A stretch of DNA of 9,726 nucleotides from assembly GCA_964426185.1 (NCBI GenBank), contig CAYRPF010000094.1, positions 1 through 9,726 on the forward strand, written 5' to 3'. Both the position numbers and the translations under genes were made by a program. Below are positions 842 through 8,458 of this stretch, one piece after another (positions within the stretch are counted from its first letter, which is position 1; each line of letters starts with the position of its first letter). The stretch is from an uncultured archaeon (lineage in GTDB: Archaea > Asgardarchaeota > Lokiarchaeia > Sigyniarchaeales > Promethearchaeaceae). The notes beneath the pieces were generated by a model, which was not told the DNA's origin, did no database searches, and saw only the letters and a program-made list of their open reading frames with translations.

Positions 842-1912
842 TCACAACTTTGAAAAGTTATTACGGGGTTTTAAAATTTGTTTCCATACTCGAATTTGGT
901 ATTTTTCATTCCAAGAATTTTGAATAAGTGTTTGTTTCAACCTGATCAGAGTTAAATCTGAGAGAACCAGTTTGGAAATTTCAGGGTATTCAGCGCGAGG
1001 GCTTCTAAAAAAATCCACCAAGGGGAAGGGGTATTGAATTCCCGATACTGATACTTGGTGCTGTTTTTTCAAATTATGATGCATGCTCGAAATCAAAAGT
1101 GAACTTGTTCCGCTGAAAAGGTCTAAAACCCGCGCGTTAGGCACGAAAGTCCATTTTTCTAAAAGAAAACCGAGTAAATCTAACGGTTTGGGATTCAAGA
1201 AACGTATCCAATCCGCTTTATGAAGATCCGATTTAATTTTTTCACTAATTATGCCAAGTGTGTTAAATAACTCCTCCCGGGCTTTAATTGAACTATCAAA
1301 ACTATCCAAAATGGAACCACTTTGTTTAAACAATGCATGAGTTTTAGACTCTTTTATCACTTTTTTTAGAGATTTCAAGTTTTTGGCATAAATTAAAATA
1401 TATGTATGACTGTGAGTAAAAATTGCATTATCTTTAACACCTTCAAACGATTTCCAGATATAAGTGCCGATAAAATTATTCTCTCCAAGTATTAAATCTA
1501 ACATTAATCGTAGATAGGGGTGTTCTTTGTCATCACAGCAAAGCAGGATCACCCCGCGTTCTGGATTGAGGAGTTTAGAGCTGAAAAACAAGCGATTATA
1601 CATCATTTTTAGCCATTGCAAATGGGTACAACCGTTATACCAAATGGAAGATTTAGAAGAAGGATAGTCGTTAATTATTGCGTCTTTTCGGCTGTTATAG
1701 GGGGGATCAATGAATATTAAATCATACGGTTCAAGATTATCTTTTTTTAATAGAAATCGCAGAACTTCTAAATTATCCCCAATAAATAGGGAAAAATCTG
1801 GAGATCCCATCCCAATATTTAAATCAGGCCGGGGAGCAAAGGAAAATCTAGATTGGTTGAATAAATGCTGCTTAATTTGGGGGAGCTCTGCTAAAAATTT
1901 CGACCATATCAA
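842..1912 (-). CDS. Beta-class N6-adenine/N4-cytosine DNA methyltransferase, Type III Mod-like, short (no TRD)
   Basis: GDNLEVL, IFIDPPYN (motif IV, DPPY at aa 69-72), HxxWLxMMxxRL, DDxE...LMLD..LGENNF, HTYILIYAK, PKP (aa 241-243), VLDLFSGTS (motif I-like, aa 262-270). Motif IV precedes motif I, the beta order. TTG start. Confidence 0.88.
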   Translation of the reverse strand: MIWSKFLAELPQIKQHLFNQSRFSFAPRPDLNIGMGSPDFSLFIGDNLEVLRFLLKKDNLEPYDLIFIDPPYNSRKDAIINDYPSSKSSIWYNGCTHLQWLKMMYNRLFFSSKLLNPERGVILLCCDDKEHPYLRLMLDLILGENNFIGTYIWKSFEGVKDNAIFTHSHTYILIYAKNLKSLKKVIKESKTHALFKQSGSILDSFDSSIKAREELFNTLGIISEKIKSDLHKADWIRFLNPKPLDLLGFLLEKWTFVPNARVLDLFSGTSSLLISSMHHNLKKQHQVSVSGIQYPFPLVDFFRSPRAEYPEISKLVLSDLTLIRLKQTLIQNSWNEKYQIRVWKQILKPRNNFSKL

Positions 1913-2041: not shown

Positions 2042-3268
2042 ATGGTAAAGGAATTATTCTACGAAGATACCTATTTACGGGAACATAAGGCAAAAATAAC
2101 CGCTTGTGAGAAAATAGCTGATAAATATGGGGTTTCACTGGATGAAACAATTTTTTACCCTGAGGGAGGGGGTGAACCAGGCGATCGTGGATGGTTTGAT
2201 AAAATCGAAGTTGTTGATACTATTAAAAAAGAAGGCGAAATTTATCATCTCACAAAAAAACCCTTAAATCCAGGAGATTCAGTTAGTATCAAATTGGATT
2301 GGGCTTTTCGCTACGATTTAATGCAATTTCACACCTCCCAACACCTACTATCCAGTGTAATTTACGATTTATACAAAGGGAACACACTATCCGTTCACGT
2401 AGGCACCAAAAATGCTCATATAGATGTGGATCTACCTTCTTTGAATTGGGAAATGGTTCGTGAGATTGAATTGAAGGCAAATACATTAATTTATCAGAAT
2501 TTATCCGTAAAAACATACTGGATTAAGGATCAAAAAGAACTGGACAAGATTCCATTTCGCAGGGCGGTAAAAAAAAAGGCGGAAAAAGGTGTCCGTGTAG
2601 TTGAAATCGAGGGATTTGATTATTCTGCTTGTGGGGGTATGCATTTAAAAAAATTGGGTGAGATTGGTATCCTGAAGATCGTAAAGTGGACCAATATTAA
2701 AGAAGGAACCCAGATCGAATTTCTCTTCGGAAAAAGGGCATTATTGGATTATGAACAGAAAACCGAAATCCTTCAAAGATTAACCAATGCCCTTACCTGC
2801 CATGATCTTGAACTAGAAGCTAAGGTGTTAGCTTTCAAGCAAAACAATCAAAAAATGGAAAAGCAGATAAAAATGCTGAATGCCGAGTTAATGGAGTATA
2901 AAATTCCTAAAATTCTTGAAAATGCCACAATCATAGATGGTGTAAGGATTATTACTGATAATTTTGAAGATAAAGACCCTAAAGACATGAAATTAATACT
3001 TAATAAATTCATGGATATTCCTAATATAATCTGTCTTTTCACTGATTTTTTTCCCGATTCGAGTAAAATTTTGGTGTTTTTCGCCCATTCTCTTGAAAAA
3101 GGGAAAGATAAACTTCATATGGGCAATGTTTTAAAAAAAGTTCTTCCTCTAATCAATGGAAAAGGTGGCGGAAAACCACAATATGCACAAGGTGGAGGAA
3201 AAGGGAAAATTCCCGATAATTTCCTCCCCGAAGCAGTTAAAATAGTAATTGATGAATTAAAGAAATGA
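2042..3268 (+). CDS. alaX: Free-standing alanyl-tRNA editing protein, large form (AlaX-L/AlaXp with C-Ala/DHHA1 domain)
   Basis: N-terminal LFYED and FYPEGGGEPGDRG; Zn-binding HTSQH (HxxxH) and CGGMH (CxxxH); coiled segment; C-terminal GKGGGKPQYAQGGG (DHHA1). No aminoacylation domain; 408 aa. Confidence 0.92.
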   Translation: MVKELFYEDTYLREHKAKITACEKIADKYGVSLDETIFYPEGGGEPGDRGWFDKIEVVDTIKKEGEIYHLTKKPLNPGDSVSIKLDWAFRYDLMQFHTSQHLLSSVIYDLYKGNTLSVHVGTKNAHIDVDLPSLNWEMVREIELKANTLIYQNLSVKTYWIKDQKELDKIPFRRAVKKKAEKGVRVVEIEGFDYSACGGMHLKKLGEIGILKIVKWTNIKEGTQIEFLFGKRALLDYEQKTEILQRLTNALTCHDLELEAKVLAFKQNNQKMEKQIKMLNAELMEYKIPKILENATIIDGVRIITDNFEDKDPKDMKLILNKFMDIPNIICLFTDFFPDSSKILVFFAHSLEKGKDKLHMGNVLKKVLPLINGKGGGKPQYAQGGGKGKIPDNFLPEAVKIVIDELKK

Positions 3269-3302
3269 AACATTGTAATTTTTTCGTTTCATGTAATTTT
3301 TT
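3265..3302 (+). terminator. Putative alaX terminator: short inverted repeat plus duplicated T-tract
   Basis: ATGAAAC (3265-3271) pairs with GTTTCAT (3286-3292). TGTAATTTTTT occurs twice (3274-3284, 3292-3302). Lies between convergent genes. Confidence 0.45.
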
Positions 3303-3330
3303 ACTTATAGTTATATTTGAAAACTTCACC

Positions 3331-3353
3331 AGAGCAAAAGAGAGCAAAAAAAA
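3331..3353 (-). terminator. Putative oligo-T terminator for the FHA-M50 gene
   Basis: The minus strand reads TTTTTTTTGCTCTCTTTTGCTCT immediately after the TAA stop (AGAGCAAAA twice on +, 3331-3339 and 3341-3349). Confidence 0.45.
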
Positions 3354-4748
3354 TTAACTAACCTCTGGAGAACCCGTAAGAACGAAAACACCGGCATATC
3401 CTATAAGAAATGCAGCGAGCATCGTAAAATACAACTTTTTGCGCCAACCTAATATATATTTTCCGTCCATTGCAAAACCATGGAATTCTTTAGGTATAAG
3501 GTTAAATCCACCCAACATAAAATTAATTCCCGCGCTCTGCAAAAAGGTTGTTTTCAATAGTGGGCTGGTTTGGGGGATAACAACTGCAATAATAAAGGTA
3601 ATTAGCCCTATTATTAGATTAACTGCAGGACCGGCCATTTTAATTGCTCCCATTTTGTCTTTATCATGCTGAGGATCTACGCCTACAGAGACAGCAGCTC
3701 CTGGTAAACCAATAGGAATTCCTATAAGTGCAGCTAATACCGTTAACTTAATTCCCCTCTTTACCAGCAGAAATTTGGAAGGGTATTGGAAATATTTGCC
3801 TGTGTAAAGATGCCCCAACTCATGGCAGATAAAGGTAATGCAGAATACCAAAGCGGTAGGAAGTGGTGTGATTAAAACGTCCCTCCATGGTAAGCCCACC
3901 CCATATTGAAAATATGTAATGAGGGAAAAAATACCGAGAAAATTCACGTAGGTATGGTAAATCATTACGAAGAGTAATCCGAATGCGATGAGAATATGCC
4001 AAATTTCTTTCATTTCCAACTTATACACTATAGAAAAATCTAATCCGAGGTCCTGCGCAACCTTGGGATCAAAACAATTCTTAGGTATGGGTACTTTCTC
4101 TTGCACTACAATGAAACTGGTGGAAGTATCGGTAAAATCATAACCCATCGATTGTATTTCTGAATCCGGCCCGACCGTGGGAGTAAAGGTGGGATCAAAG
4201 TATTCGCCCCCAGATGGTGATATATTGACTTCTTGTTTGGCTTTGGCGCGTTTTTGGTGTTTCGGAGGTTCTGATTTATTATCAAAGAGAAATGGCTGTT
4301 CCACCCCCTCTTCTGGGGAAATAGTTAGGTTTTTATCTTGGATTTGTTGAGGGGTTTTTTCTTCTTTTTGAAATATAATTTCTAATTGGACTAATTTTCC
4401 TTTTCTTTCAAGCGGAACGATGATTTTATCCCCTGGATTTAATAATTGTATTCCTGTCTGCTTCAAATTTAAATTTCCAAGGTACGTTCCATTTGATGAA
4501 TTGCGATCTTCGATATAATATTGTTTTTTTGTGGAATTATATTGAATACTGAACTGTTCTTTGATAATTTCACCTTGATTATCGGTCCGGACTGAAGATA
4601 ACGTGGAAAATTCTTGGGGTTTAATTGGTACAGTAGCACAATTGATTATTTCACGTTTACCAATGTGATTTATTCCTACTGGAGATAAAAGTATTTTCCC
4701 CTTGATTTCGGGGATTGACAAATATGCACTTTTCATTAACAAATACAA
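3354..4748 (-). CDS. FHA domain fused through a long polar linker to a site-2 (M50) intramembrane zinc metalloprotease
   Basis: N-terminal FHA-like pattern IGK...YYIEDRNSSNGTYL...LNPGDKI (aa ~28-109); linker aa ~128-240; membrane domain with HELGH (aa 309-313), AGPAVN (372-377) and FNLIP...MDG (415-429). The real start may be ATG at 4736 rather than TTG at 4748. Confidence 0.88.
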   Translation of the reverse strand: MYLLMKSAYLSIPEIKGKILLSPVGINHIGKREIINCATVPIKPQEFSTLSSVRTDNQGEIIKEQFSIQYNSTKKQYYIEDRNSSNGTYLGNLNLKQTGIQLLNPGDKIIVPLERKGKLVQLEIIFQKEEKTPQQIQDKNLTISPEEGVEQPFLFDNKSEPPKHQKRAKAKQEVNISPSGGEYFDPTFTPTVGPDSEIQSMGYDFTDTSTSFIVVQEKVPIPKNCFDPKVAQDLGLDFSIVYKLEMKEIWHILIAFGLLFVMIYHTYVNFLGIFSLITYFQYGVGLPWRDVLITPLPTALVFCITFICHELGHLYTGKYFQYPSKFLLVKRGIKLTVLAALIGIPIGLPGAAVSVGVDPQHDKDKMGAIKMAGPAVNLIIGLITFIIAVVIPQTSPLLKTTFLQSAGINFMLGGFNLIPKEFHGFAMDGKYILGWRKKLYFTMLAAFLIGYAGVFVLTGSPEVS

Positions 4749-4802
4749 TGAGGGTAAATCGTAAAAAAGTTAACTTTTATGAAAAAATTGATACCCATCA
4801 TT
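4747..4802. repeat. Nested inverted repeat with a perfect 14-bp palindrome core
   Basis: AAAAGTTAACTTTT (4765-4778) is a perfect palindrome. It is flanked by AATGAGGGTA (4747-4756) and TACCCATCATT (4792-4802), which pair with a single bulge. Confidence 0.6.
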
Positions 4803-4808
4803 TATTAA

Positions 4809-5825
4809 TTAAATAAAACGAGAAATTGCATTGCGTCTTCCAAATTTTTTAAAGAAAAAGTATCCACCAGCCAGAGCGCATATTTGAGCAAATGATTCAA
4901 CTGCTGATTGAGAAAAGCCGGGATTGAAGATTCCTAAAACGATAAAAACCAAATCCATTAAAATAAGAAAGTAGAGTATGTATTTTCCCTTCATTTTAAT
5001 CGGAATAAAATATAAATACATTCTCATTTCTCGATTCAAGCCCACCATATATAGTATATAGCTGATCATTCCCAACAAAGCAGCCCATTGAACGGAAAAA
5101 AGACTCAATTGAAATCCAAGAGCATTAGCTTGTGGTAAAATGGGTAAAAAGGAGAAAATTGCCTGGAAAAATAAACCCCCAACAATTCCGAATAATCCGC
5201 ATCCTATATATAGATAGAGAATAAATCGGGTTCCAAATTGATTTTCCAACATTCTCCCTGTCCCGTAAAGGATTATCATAGTAAATATTAAGGAAAAAAC
5301 GTTTGTGGTCGTAAACATTGAAGTAAAGAGAGTCCAAATCCAAAAATTTCCAAATAAGGTTGAGACATTTAGAAATAAAACAGCTGACGAAACTCTAAAC
5401 AATCCTAAGATTAGTCCAGCTAATGAAAATAATCCATTTAAACCCATCAACCAATAGGTTCCTTTAGAACGGTGTGAACCGCCAAATAGAGATGAAGAAA
5501 AGCTTCGAATTCTGCTAGAATCTCTATTCGGAGGAGGAGGCATAGAGCTCCGCTCTTGATTGCGAATATAATCCCGCATTTCTCTATCCAATTGGCTTTC
5601 ATCATTTGAATAATTTGTATCAGAAGATGATGTTGTTTCTTCGTAATGAGAAGATTGAGAAATATCAATATTTTGAGAAAAAGAAGATTTTTTTTCCATT
5701 GTAAAAGGGCAATTGTGATTTTCAGGAAGTCTATGCTTCTTACAGAATGTTCCGCCACAGTAACGACATTTAAATGGCAAATATTCTATTACTTCATCAC
5801 AATCGGGAACGTCACACTTAACCAT
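4809..5825 (-). CDS. AN1-type zinc finger fused to a rhomboid-fold membrane domain; predicted catalytically inactive pseudoprotease
   Basis: C4-x4-C9-x10-C20-x2-C23-x4-C28-x2-H31-x5-H37-x-C39 matches AN1. A Ser/Pro-rich linker is followed by about 6 TM helices with rhomboid landmarks WTLFTSMF, LYGTGRMLENQFG, YIGCGLFG and YFIPIKMKGKY. GxSG is replaced by VQWA and AHxxG by AQICA. Confidence 0.85.
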   Translation of the reverse strand: MVKCDVPDCDEVIEYLPFKCRYCGGTFCKKHRLPENHNCPFTMEKKSSFSQNIDISQSSHYEETTSSSDTNYSNDESQLDREMRDYIRNQERSSMPPPPNRDSSRIRSFSSSLFGGSHRSKGTYWLMGLNGLFSLAGLILGLFRVSSAVLFLNVSTLFGNFWIWTLFTSMFTTTNVFSLIFTMIILYGTGRMLENQFGTRFILYLYIGCGLFGIVGGLFFQAIFSFLPILPQANALGFQLSLFSVQWAALLGMISYILYMVGLNREMRMYLYFIPIKMKGKYILYFLILMDLVFIVLGIFNPGFSQSAVESFAQICALAGGYFFFKKFGRRNAISRFI

Positions 5826-5900
5826 TTCAAAAGTATATAATAAACCATCTTCTTTATTTGTATGTATTTAAAAAAATATGAAAATGACATTTACCACTTA

Positions 5901-7931
5901 TTAGTGAACAATTTCTTGAATAAGCTGATTTATTGTATATTTATCTGGAGTTAGCACTCCTCTGAACGATTCATATATTTTATTGAAAAAGAATTGTTTG
6001 GCACTCTTAGATGATGGCGCAATTATCTTTGAATCTATAAGATGCCGTAAATATACCCTAATTCGATCTTGTAAAGGTATTTCCACCTTAGAAAGATGTA
6101 ATTGTGAAGTTAACCACCACTGTCTTTGAGAATTTATCTTGAAATCGGGATCTACCATTAAATCATGTACACATTCTTCAAAATTGGGTAAAGGAAATAA
6201 AAATTCTCGGTATAAAAATTCATCAATTAAATTTGTGATCCAAATAAAATATGTGGGCTCCCCTCTTTTTTGCAGAATCTCAATAATTAACTCTTTGATC
6301 TTAGTTTTTTGTTTTTGATAAGAAGTTGTAGCAATTTTTTTTTTATAAATTGAGTAATAAGGTTGGGAATTAGAAGATAGTTTTTGAAACCGTAAAAAAT
6401 AATCTCCAATTGGGGATCCTTCATGATGCAGCATTGATTTTAGTGAAGCACGGGCAGGTAACTGAAAAAGAATCTGTTTTAACTCAAACCCGCTCTTAAG
6501 AATGGATAAAACTAAAGCATTCCGAATCTTGGTAGAAGTATTATGAAAAGTTAACACCATATATTTATCCGGTTTTAATACGCGATATAAAACGGAGAAA
6601 GCTTCCCGTAATAAACTCTGGTAGCGTTGTAGATTTTTATTCTGGTTGGAATTAATAACTATTTCATCGCAACTAATGCTTGAAAGATAGGAATTCATAT
6701 CATATCCCAACCAATTTGCCCATAATGCACTTAATTCACCGTATTGAATTGAGTCTCCATAAGGAGGGTCTGTAAATATGAAATCAACAGAATTTTCAGG
6801 TAAACTACACTTGGTGATCGATTGGGTCAATAAATAAACAGGAAAATCCTTAGAATTAAAAAATATGTCAAGATTGGGAGCGGGTTGAAAGGGAATTTGA
6901 CACATTGAATTTCGACTGTTTGATTCCTTTTTACCTCGAAGCACTTTTTGATATCTGAATTTGAAGCAATTCCATGCATTAACCTCAAAGAATTTATGAG
7001 GATTCCAAAAGAAATGATGAGTCCAAGAACCAACCTGTTTTTGCGTTAATTCTCGCCCACGACGTTTATCAATCACCCAAACCATCCGACTTGCTTGACT
7101 TATGGAACTAGAAAATGTAAAAAGCATCAAATCTCGAATAGAATTAAATTTTGAAGGCAGATTCATTATTTTTTCTCTCAACCAAGTTAAAAAAATCAGA
7201 GCTCGTGGGGAGAAAAGTTCCGACATCGCGTTGTTGTTTCGTAACGAATGCCTTAATTGGAGAAAAGGTGTCTTATTAGAATATTGAAGATGAAACTTAA
7301 GAAATCGAAGGTCATTTACAGAGAGATCTTGTTGAAAACGTTCATTTTGTGAGCAAATATTGAGATTTATTCGCTCAAAATCAGCATCTTCTGGCAGAAT
7401 TTTTACTGATCCGCAATTTGGACAAAATAAGCGAATTTCAAGAAGTTGATAAATTGAGTTTGTATCAGGAGAAAGAACTTGTTTTGATGATTGGGTGGAA
7501 TTATGCCATATCAAATGGGTAATTTCTGCATTTTCTTGGCAGTAAGGGCATGATTGATAATATAATTGTGAATATAATGAAGGTTTTCGAAAAACTTGGT
7601 TTTCTATCCATTGAAAACCCTCTTGATATAATGATATATCAGCAAATTTCCCAGTATTAGCGCAGATAAAAGAAGAAATTGGATTTATATCTATGCCTAC
7701 CGCTTTTCGATCATTGAACACAGCTTCTAATACTGTAACTCCCGATCCCATGAATGGATCTAATATAATATCTCCTGGAGCAGAATACTTTAGAATATAA
7801 TGCCGAATTATATTTGCTGGTTTCCGTGCCCAAAATTTATGCATCAAATACATTGGGGAATGAGTCTCGGGAAGAAGAACATAATCTAAGGAGATATTTC
7901 TAGGTATTTTGCTCATCTTCTTCTTTTTCAC
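5901..7931 (-). CDS. Adenine-specific DNA methyltransferase with Zn-ribbon insertion (COG1743-like), orphan within this window
   Basis: HKFWARKP, ILDPFMGSGVT (motif I), GIDINP (motif II), CPYC (aa 128-131) and CPNC (aa 170-173), IFTDPPYGD (motif IV, DPPY at aa 388-391), RVLKPDKYMVLTFHN. GTG start at 7931 or ATG at 7916. Confidence 0.88.
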   Translation of the reverse strand: MKKKKMSKIPRNISLDYVLLPETHSPMYLMHKFWARKPANIIRHYILKYSAPGDIILDPFMGSGVTVLEAVFNDRKAVGIDINPISSFICANTGKFADISLYQEGFQWIENQVFRKPSLYSQLYYQSCPYCQENAEITHLIWHNSTQSSKQVLSPDTNSIYQLLEIRLFCPNCGSVKILPEDADFERINLNICSQNERFQQDLSVNDLRFLKFHLQYSNKTPFLQLRHSLRNNNAMSELFSPRALIFLTWLREKIMNLPSKFNSIRDLMLFTFSSSISQASRMVWVIDKRRGRELTQKQVGSWTHHFFWNPHKFFEVNAWNCFKFRYQKVLRGKKESNSRNSMCQIPFQPAPNLDIFFNSKDFPVYLLTQSITKCSLPENSVDFIFTDPPYGDSIQYGELSALWANWLGYDMNSYLSSISCDEIVINSNQNKNLQRYQSLLREAFSVLYRVLKPDKYMVLTFHNTSTKIRNALVLSILKSGFELKQILFQLPARASLKSMLHHEGSPIGDYFLRFQKLSSNSQPYYSIYKKKIATTSYQKQKTKIKELIIEILQKRGEPTYFIWITNLIDEFLYREFLFPLPNFEECVHDLMVDPDFKINSQRQWWLTSQLHLSKVEIPLQDRIRVYLRHLIDSKIIAPSSKSAKQFFFNKIYESFRGVLTPDKYTINQLIQEIVH

Positions 7932-8023: not shown

Positions 8024-8458
8024 ATGAGCAGCTCTACCGCGGCGCGGGAATTCAATAAGCAAATTGCCAGTGCTTTACAATCTATGGTTAAAGTTATTCT
8101 TGAGCATGAATATCCCATGCATTATTATACCGGAAGGTTGGTTGGAATTGATATGGGACATACTATTTGCTTAGAAAATGCCCGTAATGAAAAAAAACGT
8201 AAATTAGGAACAATTTTTATTCATGGTGATAAATGGGTTTCATTTACAATTGAAGGAGAACCCTTCCCGATGGAAGAATTGGCAGCACGATTACGAAAAG
8301 TCTTACCTGGAGAAGCCATTCGTATTAGTGACGATAATTCAATTAGTATTCTCGGTGGAAAGGTAGTTATCACGGAAAAGGGTGTGGAAGGTCGAGGTCC
8401 CACAGCTGAACGAATTCAAAAAGTATTTGATTCTTTTGTTAGTGAAAGGCACCATTGA
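8024..8458 (+). CDS. Sm-like archaeal RNA-binding protein with C-terminal extension (SmAP3/Lsm_C type)
   Basis: N-terminal helix, VKV, YTGRLVGID...ICLENA (Sm1-like), IFIHG (Sm2-like), then a ~65-aa C-terminal domain PF..EELAARL...VVITEKGVEGRGPTAERIQKVFDSF, as in SmAP3; 144 aa. Confidence 0.85.
   Translation: MSSSTAAREFNKQIASALQSMVKVILEHEYPMHYYTGRLVGIDMGHTICLENARNEKKRKLGTIFIHGDKWVSFTIEGEPFPMEELAARLRKVLPGEAIRISDDNSISILGGKVVITEKGVEGRGPTAERIQKVFDSFVSERHH

Follow-up and report, generated by a model that had tools for sequence, protein, structure and literature searches.

Introduction

The joining of an N-terminal AN1 zinc finger to a rhomboid was published for RhoII of Haloferax volcanii (HVO_0727), an active protease (PMC4343526). 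Rhomboid-fold proteins are also found at the side of other proteases: iRhom2 pairs with ADAM17 (PMC12615303), and the Bacillus subtilis rhomboid YqgP is an adaptor of the metalloprotease FtsH (PMC7231995). The AN1 finger of Cuz1 is needed for proteasome binding, and its subfamily works with Cdc48/p97; the LDFLP motif itself is dispensable for binding of both proteasome and Cdc48 (PMC5035049). Archaea have Cdc48 and 20S proteasomes (PMC13328587). In the stretch of DNA analysed here (the window; whole contig C94, 9,726 nt, of a 3.26-Mb metagenome-assembled genome (MAG), 92% complete), the gene of an AN1-finger rhomboid pseudoprotease (4809-5825, minus strand) lies head to tail with, and upstream of, the gene of an FHA-linked M50 or site-2 protease (3354-4748, minus strand). 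The pair is read as a membrane module of two genes that is conserved in one Asgard order (Promethearchaeota, Loki-type) and formed by an M50 protease and a non-catalytic pseudo-rhomboid partner; the probability of this reading is put at about 0.6.

Each of the component families has been described before, as has the AN1-rhomboid in its active form. A literature search returned no paper on a dead AN1-rhomboid family paired with a site-2 protease (S2P) or on its FHA variant, most subscription journals being outside the coverage of the search. Among rhomboid pseudoproteases that assist other proteolytic machines, the well-studied ones (iRhoms, Derlins) are from eukaryotes; here, a constrained family of dead rhomboids with a eukaryote-type AN1 finger has a genetic tie to a site-2 protease in Asgard archaea. 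A functional pairing would provide a prokaryotic model of a partnership between pseudoprotease and active protease, and a first handle on AN1 binding in archaea. The window's layout is shared by Promethearchaeum syntrophicum MK-D1 and Candidatus Lokiarchaeum ossiferum. Since both are cultured, the module is bench-testable.

Comparison with described systems

Haloarchaeal proteins of the RhoII type share with the Loki proteins an AN1 finger at the N-terminus, bearing LPF/Y and HRLPENH motifs, and a six-helix rhomboid core (25-29% identity over residues 1-330). They keep H..HxxxN, GASGA and AHLxG and have no M50 gene within 3 kb, whereas the Loki proteins are dyad-less and are encoded beside an M50 gene. 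Because the dyad is absent, the window protein was not filed as a RhoII-type protease. Outside Asgard archaea, AN1-rhomboids were found in Halobacteria, Nanohaloarchaeota and one Thermoplasmatota MAG, with intact dyad and no M50 neighbour. The Loki AN1-pseudorhomboid may have descended from a RhoII-type AN1-rhomboid or may have arisen by independent fusion.

With iRhom2-ADAM17 and Derlin/Der1-Hrd1-Cdc48 the locus shares a dyad-less rhomboid fold under constraint that is associated with another proteolytic or extraction machine. In contrast to iRhoms and Derlins, the Loki protein has no iRhom homology domain or seventh helix and no evident p97-binding tail, and its fold is GlpG-like; the protein paired with it is an intramembrane protease of the M50 type, and the pairing is one at the genomic level. 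An earlier reading made from the letters of the window (the sequence-only reading) had invoked iRhom/ADAM17 and Dsc2; these parallels stand as analogies, and the fold is nearer to GlpG than to Derlin or iRhom. YqgP-FtsH is a further likeness, in that a prokaryotic protein of rhomboid fold assists a membrane metalloprotease in the quality control of membrane proteins; YqgP, however, is catalytically active and its partner is an AAA+ protease, not an M50 protein. The M50 protein shares with site-2 proteases (M. jannaschii S2P (mjS2P) 3b4r, SpoIVFB, RseP) HExxH and NxxPxxxxDG in membrane helices and an mjS2P-like core. It differs from them by a cytosolic N-terminal module that is AN1 or FHA, not PDZ or CBS, and by a rhomboid-fold protein as neighbour.

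The pseudo-rhomboid

The 338-amino-acid (aa) product of the upstream open reading frame (ORF) matched Pfam zf-AN1 (51.7 bits, residues 4-41) and Rhomboid (37 bits, cut-off 22.6). Alignments were built from 31 relatives on the rhomboid side and 39 on the M50 side. Only 11 of the 31 rhomboid relatives reached Pfam Rhomboid at E<=1e-3, which marks the family as divergent. The AlphaFold2 (AF2) model, built on the family alignment, had a predicted local distance difference test score (pLDDT) of 84.4. In Foldseek searches with this model, all top matches were GlpG structures (TM-score 0.58-0.70 by target); Derlin-1, Der1 and iRhom scored lower, iRhom chains being weak fold matches (E 0.3-0.7). A phmmer search of the PDB with the single rhomboid sequence returned AN1 domains only, and the family profile reached GlpG over the first three transmembrane helices (TM1-TM3) only, at E ~1e-3. 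NCBIfam gave no match for either protein.

In the six-helix rhomboid-fold core without catalytic dyad (4812-5474, minus strand), hhalign and a joint alignment placed the positions that correspond to the catalytic residues of active rhomboids. Trp247 stands at the serine of GxSG in TM4 (5070-5096), Gln314 at the TM6 histidine (4863-4892), and T173, S178 and T182 at the H/H/N positions of TM2 (5277-5312). The protein had been called dead from the sequence alone, and these substitutions bear this out. Residues E194 and G198 of the structural ExxxG motif after TM2 (5232-5246) were invariant in the 31 sequences. A canonical rhomboid of the same genome (contig C21) carries HxxxN, GSSGA and AHIFG; hhalign aligned the family profile with it at 95% probability, a conserved Trp falling at the serine position. 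Across relatives, the TM4 serine position is W, N or G, rarely S, and the TM6 histidine position is Q, D, E, S or N in all members. When Loki members were aligned jointly with haloarchaeal AN1-rhomboids and with canonical Asgard rhomboids, H..HxxxN, GASGA and AHLxG were present in both of these other groups and absent from every Loki member.

For an exhaustive profile search, 1.84 billion cluster representatives were used, and 72 proteins were retrieved at E<=1e-30. Neither the TM6 His nor the TM2 H/H/N was retained in any of the best ~75 representatives; beyond these, the change to fully active enzymes with HHN, ASGA and AHLxG was abrupt. By this pattern of conservation, the pseudoprotease constitutes a discrete family under constraint, and its rhomboid-fold domain is predicted to be incapable of serine protease activity. 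A conserved hairpin, NREM..FIPIKMKGKY (4980-5036), appears as strands at residues 266-279 of the model.

In the model, the L1 region is short and the core has six helices; neither a seventh helix nor, between TM1 and TM2, an iRhom homology domain is present. No Derlin Pfam family was matched, and the C-terminus ends ~10 residues past TM6; no search for an SHP motif was made. A match to DUF1751/TMEM115 fell just below cut-off; a specific kinship with Derlin or TMEM115 was not adopted, GlpG fitting the fold better.

Between the finger and the core lies a polar, mostly disordered linker (5475-5708, minus strand), with pLDDT <50 at residues 45-71 and 110-116. It contains a conserved helix, ESQLDREMRDYIRNQERSSMPPPP (5529-5600; ~residues 72-94), modelled with confidence. 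Among the 31 relatives the QER-type motif of the linker is conserved, and MPPPP is confined to most of the FHA subclade.

A subset of pseudo-rhomboids (L176:2983-3840 (+); P0002, P0010, P0012, P0013 and P0035) retains the TM4 serine as LASGA or LASGG, with Asp or Glu for the histidine and no TM2 His/Asn.

The M50 protease

The downstream ORF encodes 464 aa when read from TTG at 4748 and 460 aa from ATG at 4736. The product matched Pfam FHA (26.3 bits, cut-off 20.7) and Peptidase_M50 (33.6 bits, cut-off 27.2). Its AF2 model, likewise built on the family alignment, had a pLDDT of 80.6, the folded regions of both proteins being predicted with confidence, and Foldseek matched it to FHA domains and to mjS2P 3b4r (E 4.3e-4). 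In the membrane core (3357-4091, minus strand), HELGH (residues 305-309; 3810-3824) and NLIP..MDG (residues 412-425; NLIPKEFHGFAMDG, 3462-3503) align with the zinc ligands of mjS2P. H305, E306, H309, N412, P415, D424 and G425 were invariant in 39/39 relatives. The active site is thus intact at the motif level, which supports the earlier prediction of an active protease.

The core is preceded by a disordered linker rich in Pro, Ser, Thr and Lys (4092-4361, minus strand; pLDDT <50 at residues 143-204). A conserved juxtamembrane segment after it, FIVVQEKVPIPKNCFDP (4065-4115), is kept in 39/39 M50 partners. The layout described in the sequence-only reading for both proteins, a soluble head, a polar linker and a membrane protease fold, was recovered by the Pfam domains and by the low pLDDT (<50) of both linkers.

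AN1-M50 proteins of families f9 and f31, from other Asgard lineages (L095-L100), match the M50 profile and have no literal HExxH; these could be site-2 proteases of a variant kind or without activity.

Linkage of the two genes

For 61 related genomes searched, a rhomboid homologue was found in 60 and an M50 homologue in 58. When the ORFs of the fetched loci were classified, rhomboid and M50 genes were co-oriented neighbours in ~48 of 55 genomes that belong to families f1 and f3. GTDB species genomes were then scanned by pattern, which yielded 63 Promethearchaeota loci. The partner was adjacent in 56 and a contig edge fell at the expected partner site in 4, which left 59 informative loci and 3 real exceptions. 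The pair is therefore adjacent and co-oriented in 56/59 informative loci, and the neighbourhood check called for earlier shows more than a coincidence of one genome.

Two layouts were found. The common one, an AN1-M50 gene followed by an AN1-pseudorhomboid gene, is that of most of the order and of genera g2 and g3 of the window's family, and is probably the ancestral form. In four genera of the window's family the order is reversed, and the AN1-pseudorhomboid gene is followed by an FHA-M50 gene. The flanks differ as well: the sequence of genes is Lsm, methyltransferase, rhomboid, M50 in the FHA subclade, and M50, rhomboid, P-loop NTPase, Lsm in family f3. The change of layout was not a simple block inversion, because both genes are flipped between the layouts, with the rhomboid gene towards Lsm in each. 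At two loci (L121 and L146) the pair is kept with other flanks.

When 301 genomes from across the phylum were sampled, families f1 and f3 of the window's order were the only ones to yield full-length AN1-pseudorhomboids. AN1-M50 proteins without a pseudo-rhomboid neighbour occur in family f4 and in other Asgard lineages, and the rhomboids found there carry GxSG. The AN1-M50 fusions proposed earlier as a search target thus exist and are commoner than FHA-M50; of FHA-rhomboid fusions, likewise proposed, none was present among the 150 best family matches.

The intergenic spacer of the window (4749-4808, minus strand) is AT-rich and contains two T6 runs and an ATAAAAG stretch. It measures 60 nt from the TTG start or 72 nt from the ATG start, so that the two co-oriented genes lie 60-72 nt apart, as first described. 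Spacers of the FHA subclade are 42-90 nt long, with 43 nt in MK-D1 and 65 nt in L. ossiferum, genome G001 being the exception (466 nt). A scan of 3200-6100 for bacterial-type promoter and terminator consensus gave nothing above chance, the scan not being designed for archaeal promoters. One 2020 RNA-seq run covers the MK-D1 locus by a 9-kb Logan contig that spans everything, from which a single transcript is not demonstrable, DNA carry-over being possible. Complex prediction of the two membrane cores (rhomboid residues 118-338 with residues 212-460 of the M50 protein) scored 0.00 and 0.00 and counts neither way on binding.

A terminator-like hairpin with a T-rich run lies at 4697-4714 (minus strand), within the 5' end of the M50 ORF. 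It is the sole such site in the region, below chance expectation.

AN1 fingers on both proteins

The AN1 finger of the pseudo-rhomboid (5709-5816, minus strand; residues 4-39) has the ligand pattern C-x2-4-C-x9-12-C-x1-2-C-x4-C-x2-H-x5-H-x-C. Its Cys and His ligands are invariant in the 31 relatives, all of which match Pfam zf-AN1 (31/31), and L16, P17 and F18 are nearly invariant. YLPF is encoded at 5772-5783, and the finger carries an HRLPENH surface motif. In the window genome this protein holds the sole Pfam AN1 match.

The nearest solved domains include that of yeast Cuz1 (5ij4), with IEYLPF aligned to LDFLPF of Cuz1. Compared with Cuz1, AIRAP, AIRAP-L and ZFAND1, the Loki finger aligns best with Cuz1 among solved domains (single-sequence search), and a hydrophobic xYLPF patch is placed at LDFLPF. 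The first two residues of the motif differ (IEYLP or IGYLP versus LDFLP), and the Loki protein has no ubiquitin-like domain.

Fingers were compared between groups. An LPF-type patch and HRLPExH were each present in 37/37 pseudo-rhomboid fingers and in 16/16 haloarchaeal AN1-rhomboid fingers. Stand-alone Asgard AN1-M50 fingers had the patch in 11/13 and HRLPExH in 13/13, and the AN1-M50 proteins of family f4, of the same order but without a pseudo-rhomboid, kept HRLPENH in 3/3. In M50 partners encoded beside a pseudo-rhomboid, both features were absent (0/52 each). Non-FHA partners begin with a textbook AN1 ligand pattern, which Pfam recognises in 21/31. Beside a pseudo-rhomboid, the protease's own finger keeps only its predicted zinc ligands, and in one subclade the finger is evidently replaced by FHA. 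This asymmetry is suggestive, being what would be expected had the pseudo-rhomboid taken over the AN1 function inside a shared machine.

The FHA domain of the window's subclade

The FHA domain (4362-4736, minus strand; residues 1-125) is divergent, with IGKRE at 4650-4664, IIKEQFSI at 4545-4568 and SSNGT at 4485-4499. Its profile matched Rad53 FHA1 and ArnA, and Foldseek matched many FHA structures. SNKHF of Rad53 aligned with IKEQF, so that the near-invariant FHA His is replaced by Gln (Gln61; 8/8) and the phosphate-binding Ser by Ile or Val. The Arg of GR is Lys in 7/8, and of the signature only NG is retained.

A Zn-ribbon-FHA paralogue is encoded on contig C46 of the same genome, adjoining a vWA protein. 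Its FHA is 44% identical to the M50-fused one and keeps GR and SEHF, with the Ser two, not three, residues ahead of the His. This paralogue marks the likely source family of the fused FHA. The ArnA structure of Sulfolobus (5a8i) is among the sequence and fold matches of the fused FHA, which differs from the ArnA type by its fusion to a membrane protease and by loss of the canonical His and Ser. Given its distribution, the FHA appears as a late, lineage-restricted replacement of the AN1 finger of the M50 protein; this swap is a natural experiment on exchanging the cytosolic input of the protease arm.

Proteins with Zn-ribbon, Pro-rich linker and FHA were located at L196:1439-2245 (-) and 2355-3299 (-) on C46 and at L197:1398-2111 (-) on C97. 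They are the closest paralogues of the M50-fused FHA and, one being beside the vWA protein, resemble the ArnA/ArnB pair of Sulfolobus.

Proposed function and alternative explanations

Since the genes stay together across the whole order, their products probably act as a protease-plus-adaptor pair. In such a pair, the M50 protein would be the catalytic arm. The pseudo-rhomboid would use its membrane core either to gate the protease or to hold or present clients that span the membrane, and its cytosolic AN1 finger to tether a soluble factor to the pair. In the window's subclade, the degenerate AN1 finger of the protease would have been swapped for a divergent FHA related to the ArnA-like Zn-ribbon-FHA paralogues, with the gene order reversed.

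Several observations weigh against the proposed module. In G002, a MAG of the window's genus that is 87% complete, a convergent unrelated ORF follows the rhomboid gene and no M50 partner was found. In G005 the two genes are unlinked, on different contigs. The third exception, L176, is a second pseudo-rhomboid paralogue without an M50 neighbour. The 466-nt spacer of G001, of the same genus (L034:1029-1494; 23% G+C), has stops in all three forward frames and no evident ORF, and leaves room for a separate promoter. AN1-M50 proteins without a pseudo-rhomboid elsewhere in Asgard archaea mean that the protease needs no such partner in general. An Lsm-like gene and a P-loop NTPase gene (the latter named without a Pfam scan) are each positionally kept in 48/62 loci, so that inherited synteny contributes to the adjacency. 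The related genomes in the adjacency counts are not independent samples, and one ancestral event may explain the finger asymmetry, which is for this reason treated as suggestive.

The same observations can be taken to mean that the genes are neighbours by inherited synteny only, the M50 protein being an ordinary site-2 protease and the pseudo-rhomboid having an unrelated role. This account, to which second pseudo-rhomboid copies without an M50 neighbour (G051 and G052, besides L176) may be added, is considered unlikely. The pair is the most persistent unit of its neighbourhood (56/59 versus 48/62 for the next most conserved genes). It has survived turnover of its flanks and a non-trivial reordering, with co-orientation and short spacers maintained, and the M50 finger degenerates only where a pseudo-rhomboid is present.

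Regulators of site-2 proteases are often encoded beside the protease, as in spoIVFA-spoIVFB, and SpoIVFA/BofA of Bacillus keep SpoIVFB inactive. By analogy, the pseudo-rhomboid could be a brake on the M50 protease, or its substrate. The genomic evidence for coupling serves this explanation as well as it serves an adaptor, and the conserved hairpin NREM..FIPIKMKGK could be an interaction or cleavage element. Sequence does not separate inhibition from presentation; the strictly conserved AN1 finger, however, would point to recruitment of a soluble factor and fit an adaptor better than a plug. A brake or substrate role is therefore rated as quite improbable.

A more specific form of the adaptor reading concerns the AN1 ligand, which could be proteasome- or Cdc48-type machinery, after Cuz1, AIRAP and ZFAND1. 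The earlier suggestion that AN1 routes products to degradation is plausible by the same analogy with Cuz1/ZFAND biology. The pair might then act in archaeal membrane-protein quality control: the dead rhomboid would engage clients, the AN1 finger would recruit Cdc48 and/or the proteasome, and the S2P would clip. As a whole this scheme is doubtful, and its chances are rated as low as those of a brake. If true, it would represent a prokaryotic counterpart, possibly a forerunner, of the Derlin/p97 logic of endoplasmic-reticulum-associated degradation in the closest cultured relatives of eukaryotes.

The sequence-only reading had also proposed phospho-gating, the FHA of the protease docking on phosphothreonines of the Ser/Thr-rich linker of the pseudo-rhomboid. 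An FHA fold and such a linker are present, and MPPPP followed by S, T or N is restricted to the FHA subclade, where most members have it. The proposed phosphorylatable motif, SQSSHYEETTSSSDT, however, falls where model confidence is low and lacks conservation even within the genus, and the window residue after PPPP is Asn. The FHA itself is late and restricted to one lineage, most of the order carrying AN1 in its place, and lacks the canonical phosphate-binding signature (no His or Ser, and mostly Lys for Arg), whereas the ArnA-like paralogue keeps GR and SEHF. FHA phospho-docking is not supported and is held to be very unlikely.

Least probable is that the rhomboid-like protein is still a protease by way of non-canonical residues: a minority keep the TM4 Ser (LASGA in P0002, P0010 and L176, for example), but these have Asp or Glu for the His, no member retains the TM2 His/Asn, Trp stands in for the Ser in the window protein, and the invariant columns of the 31-relative alignment offer no alternative conserved Ser/His pair.

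Neighbouring genes and further observations

Downstream, at 2042-3268 (plus strand) and convergent with the M50 gene, the window encodes an AlaX-type alanyl-tRNA editing protein with DHHA1, whose place beside the pair is not conserved in other genera. Genes for two N6/N4 DNA methyltransferases are present, at 5901-7931 and 842-1912 (both minus strand). The larger one (5901-7931) is directly upstream of the pair in 6/6 FHA-subclade loci examined, MK-D1 and L. ossiferum included. An Lsm-like protein with Lsm_C is encoded at 8024-8458 (plus strand); in 48/62 loci, despite rearrangements, the rhomboid side of the pair has a homologue within 1-3 kb.

In one genus of family f3 (L122, L126, L135 and L148, at ~2950-3010; L129 likewise), the AN1-pseudorhomboid frame has no ATG, GTG or TTG ahead of the finger, which suggests a non-canonical start codon. 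The frame opens directly after a stop codon with CTG-ACx-TAT-TGx, or with AAA-GTA-ACT in L129. The 200-300-nt spacer between the M50 and rhomboid genes of the same five loci contains, at ~2880-2910, a conserved short element, GTAAAAATTATGAAGGATGATAATTT, which could encode micropeptides of the MKDDNFK type, 7-11 aa in length.

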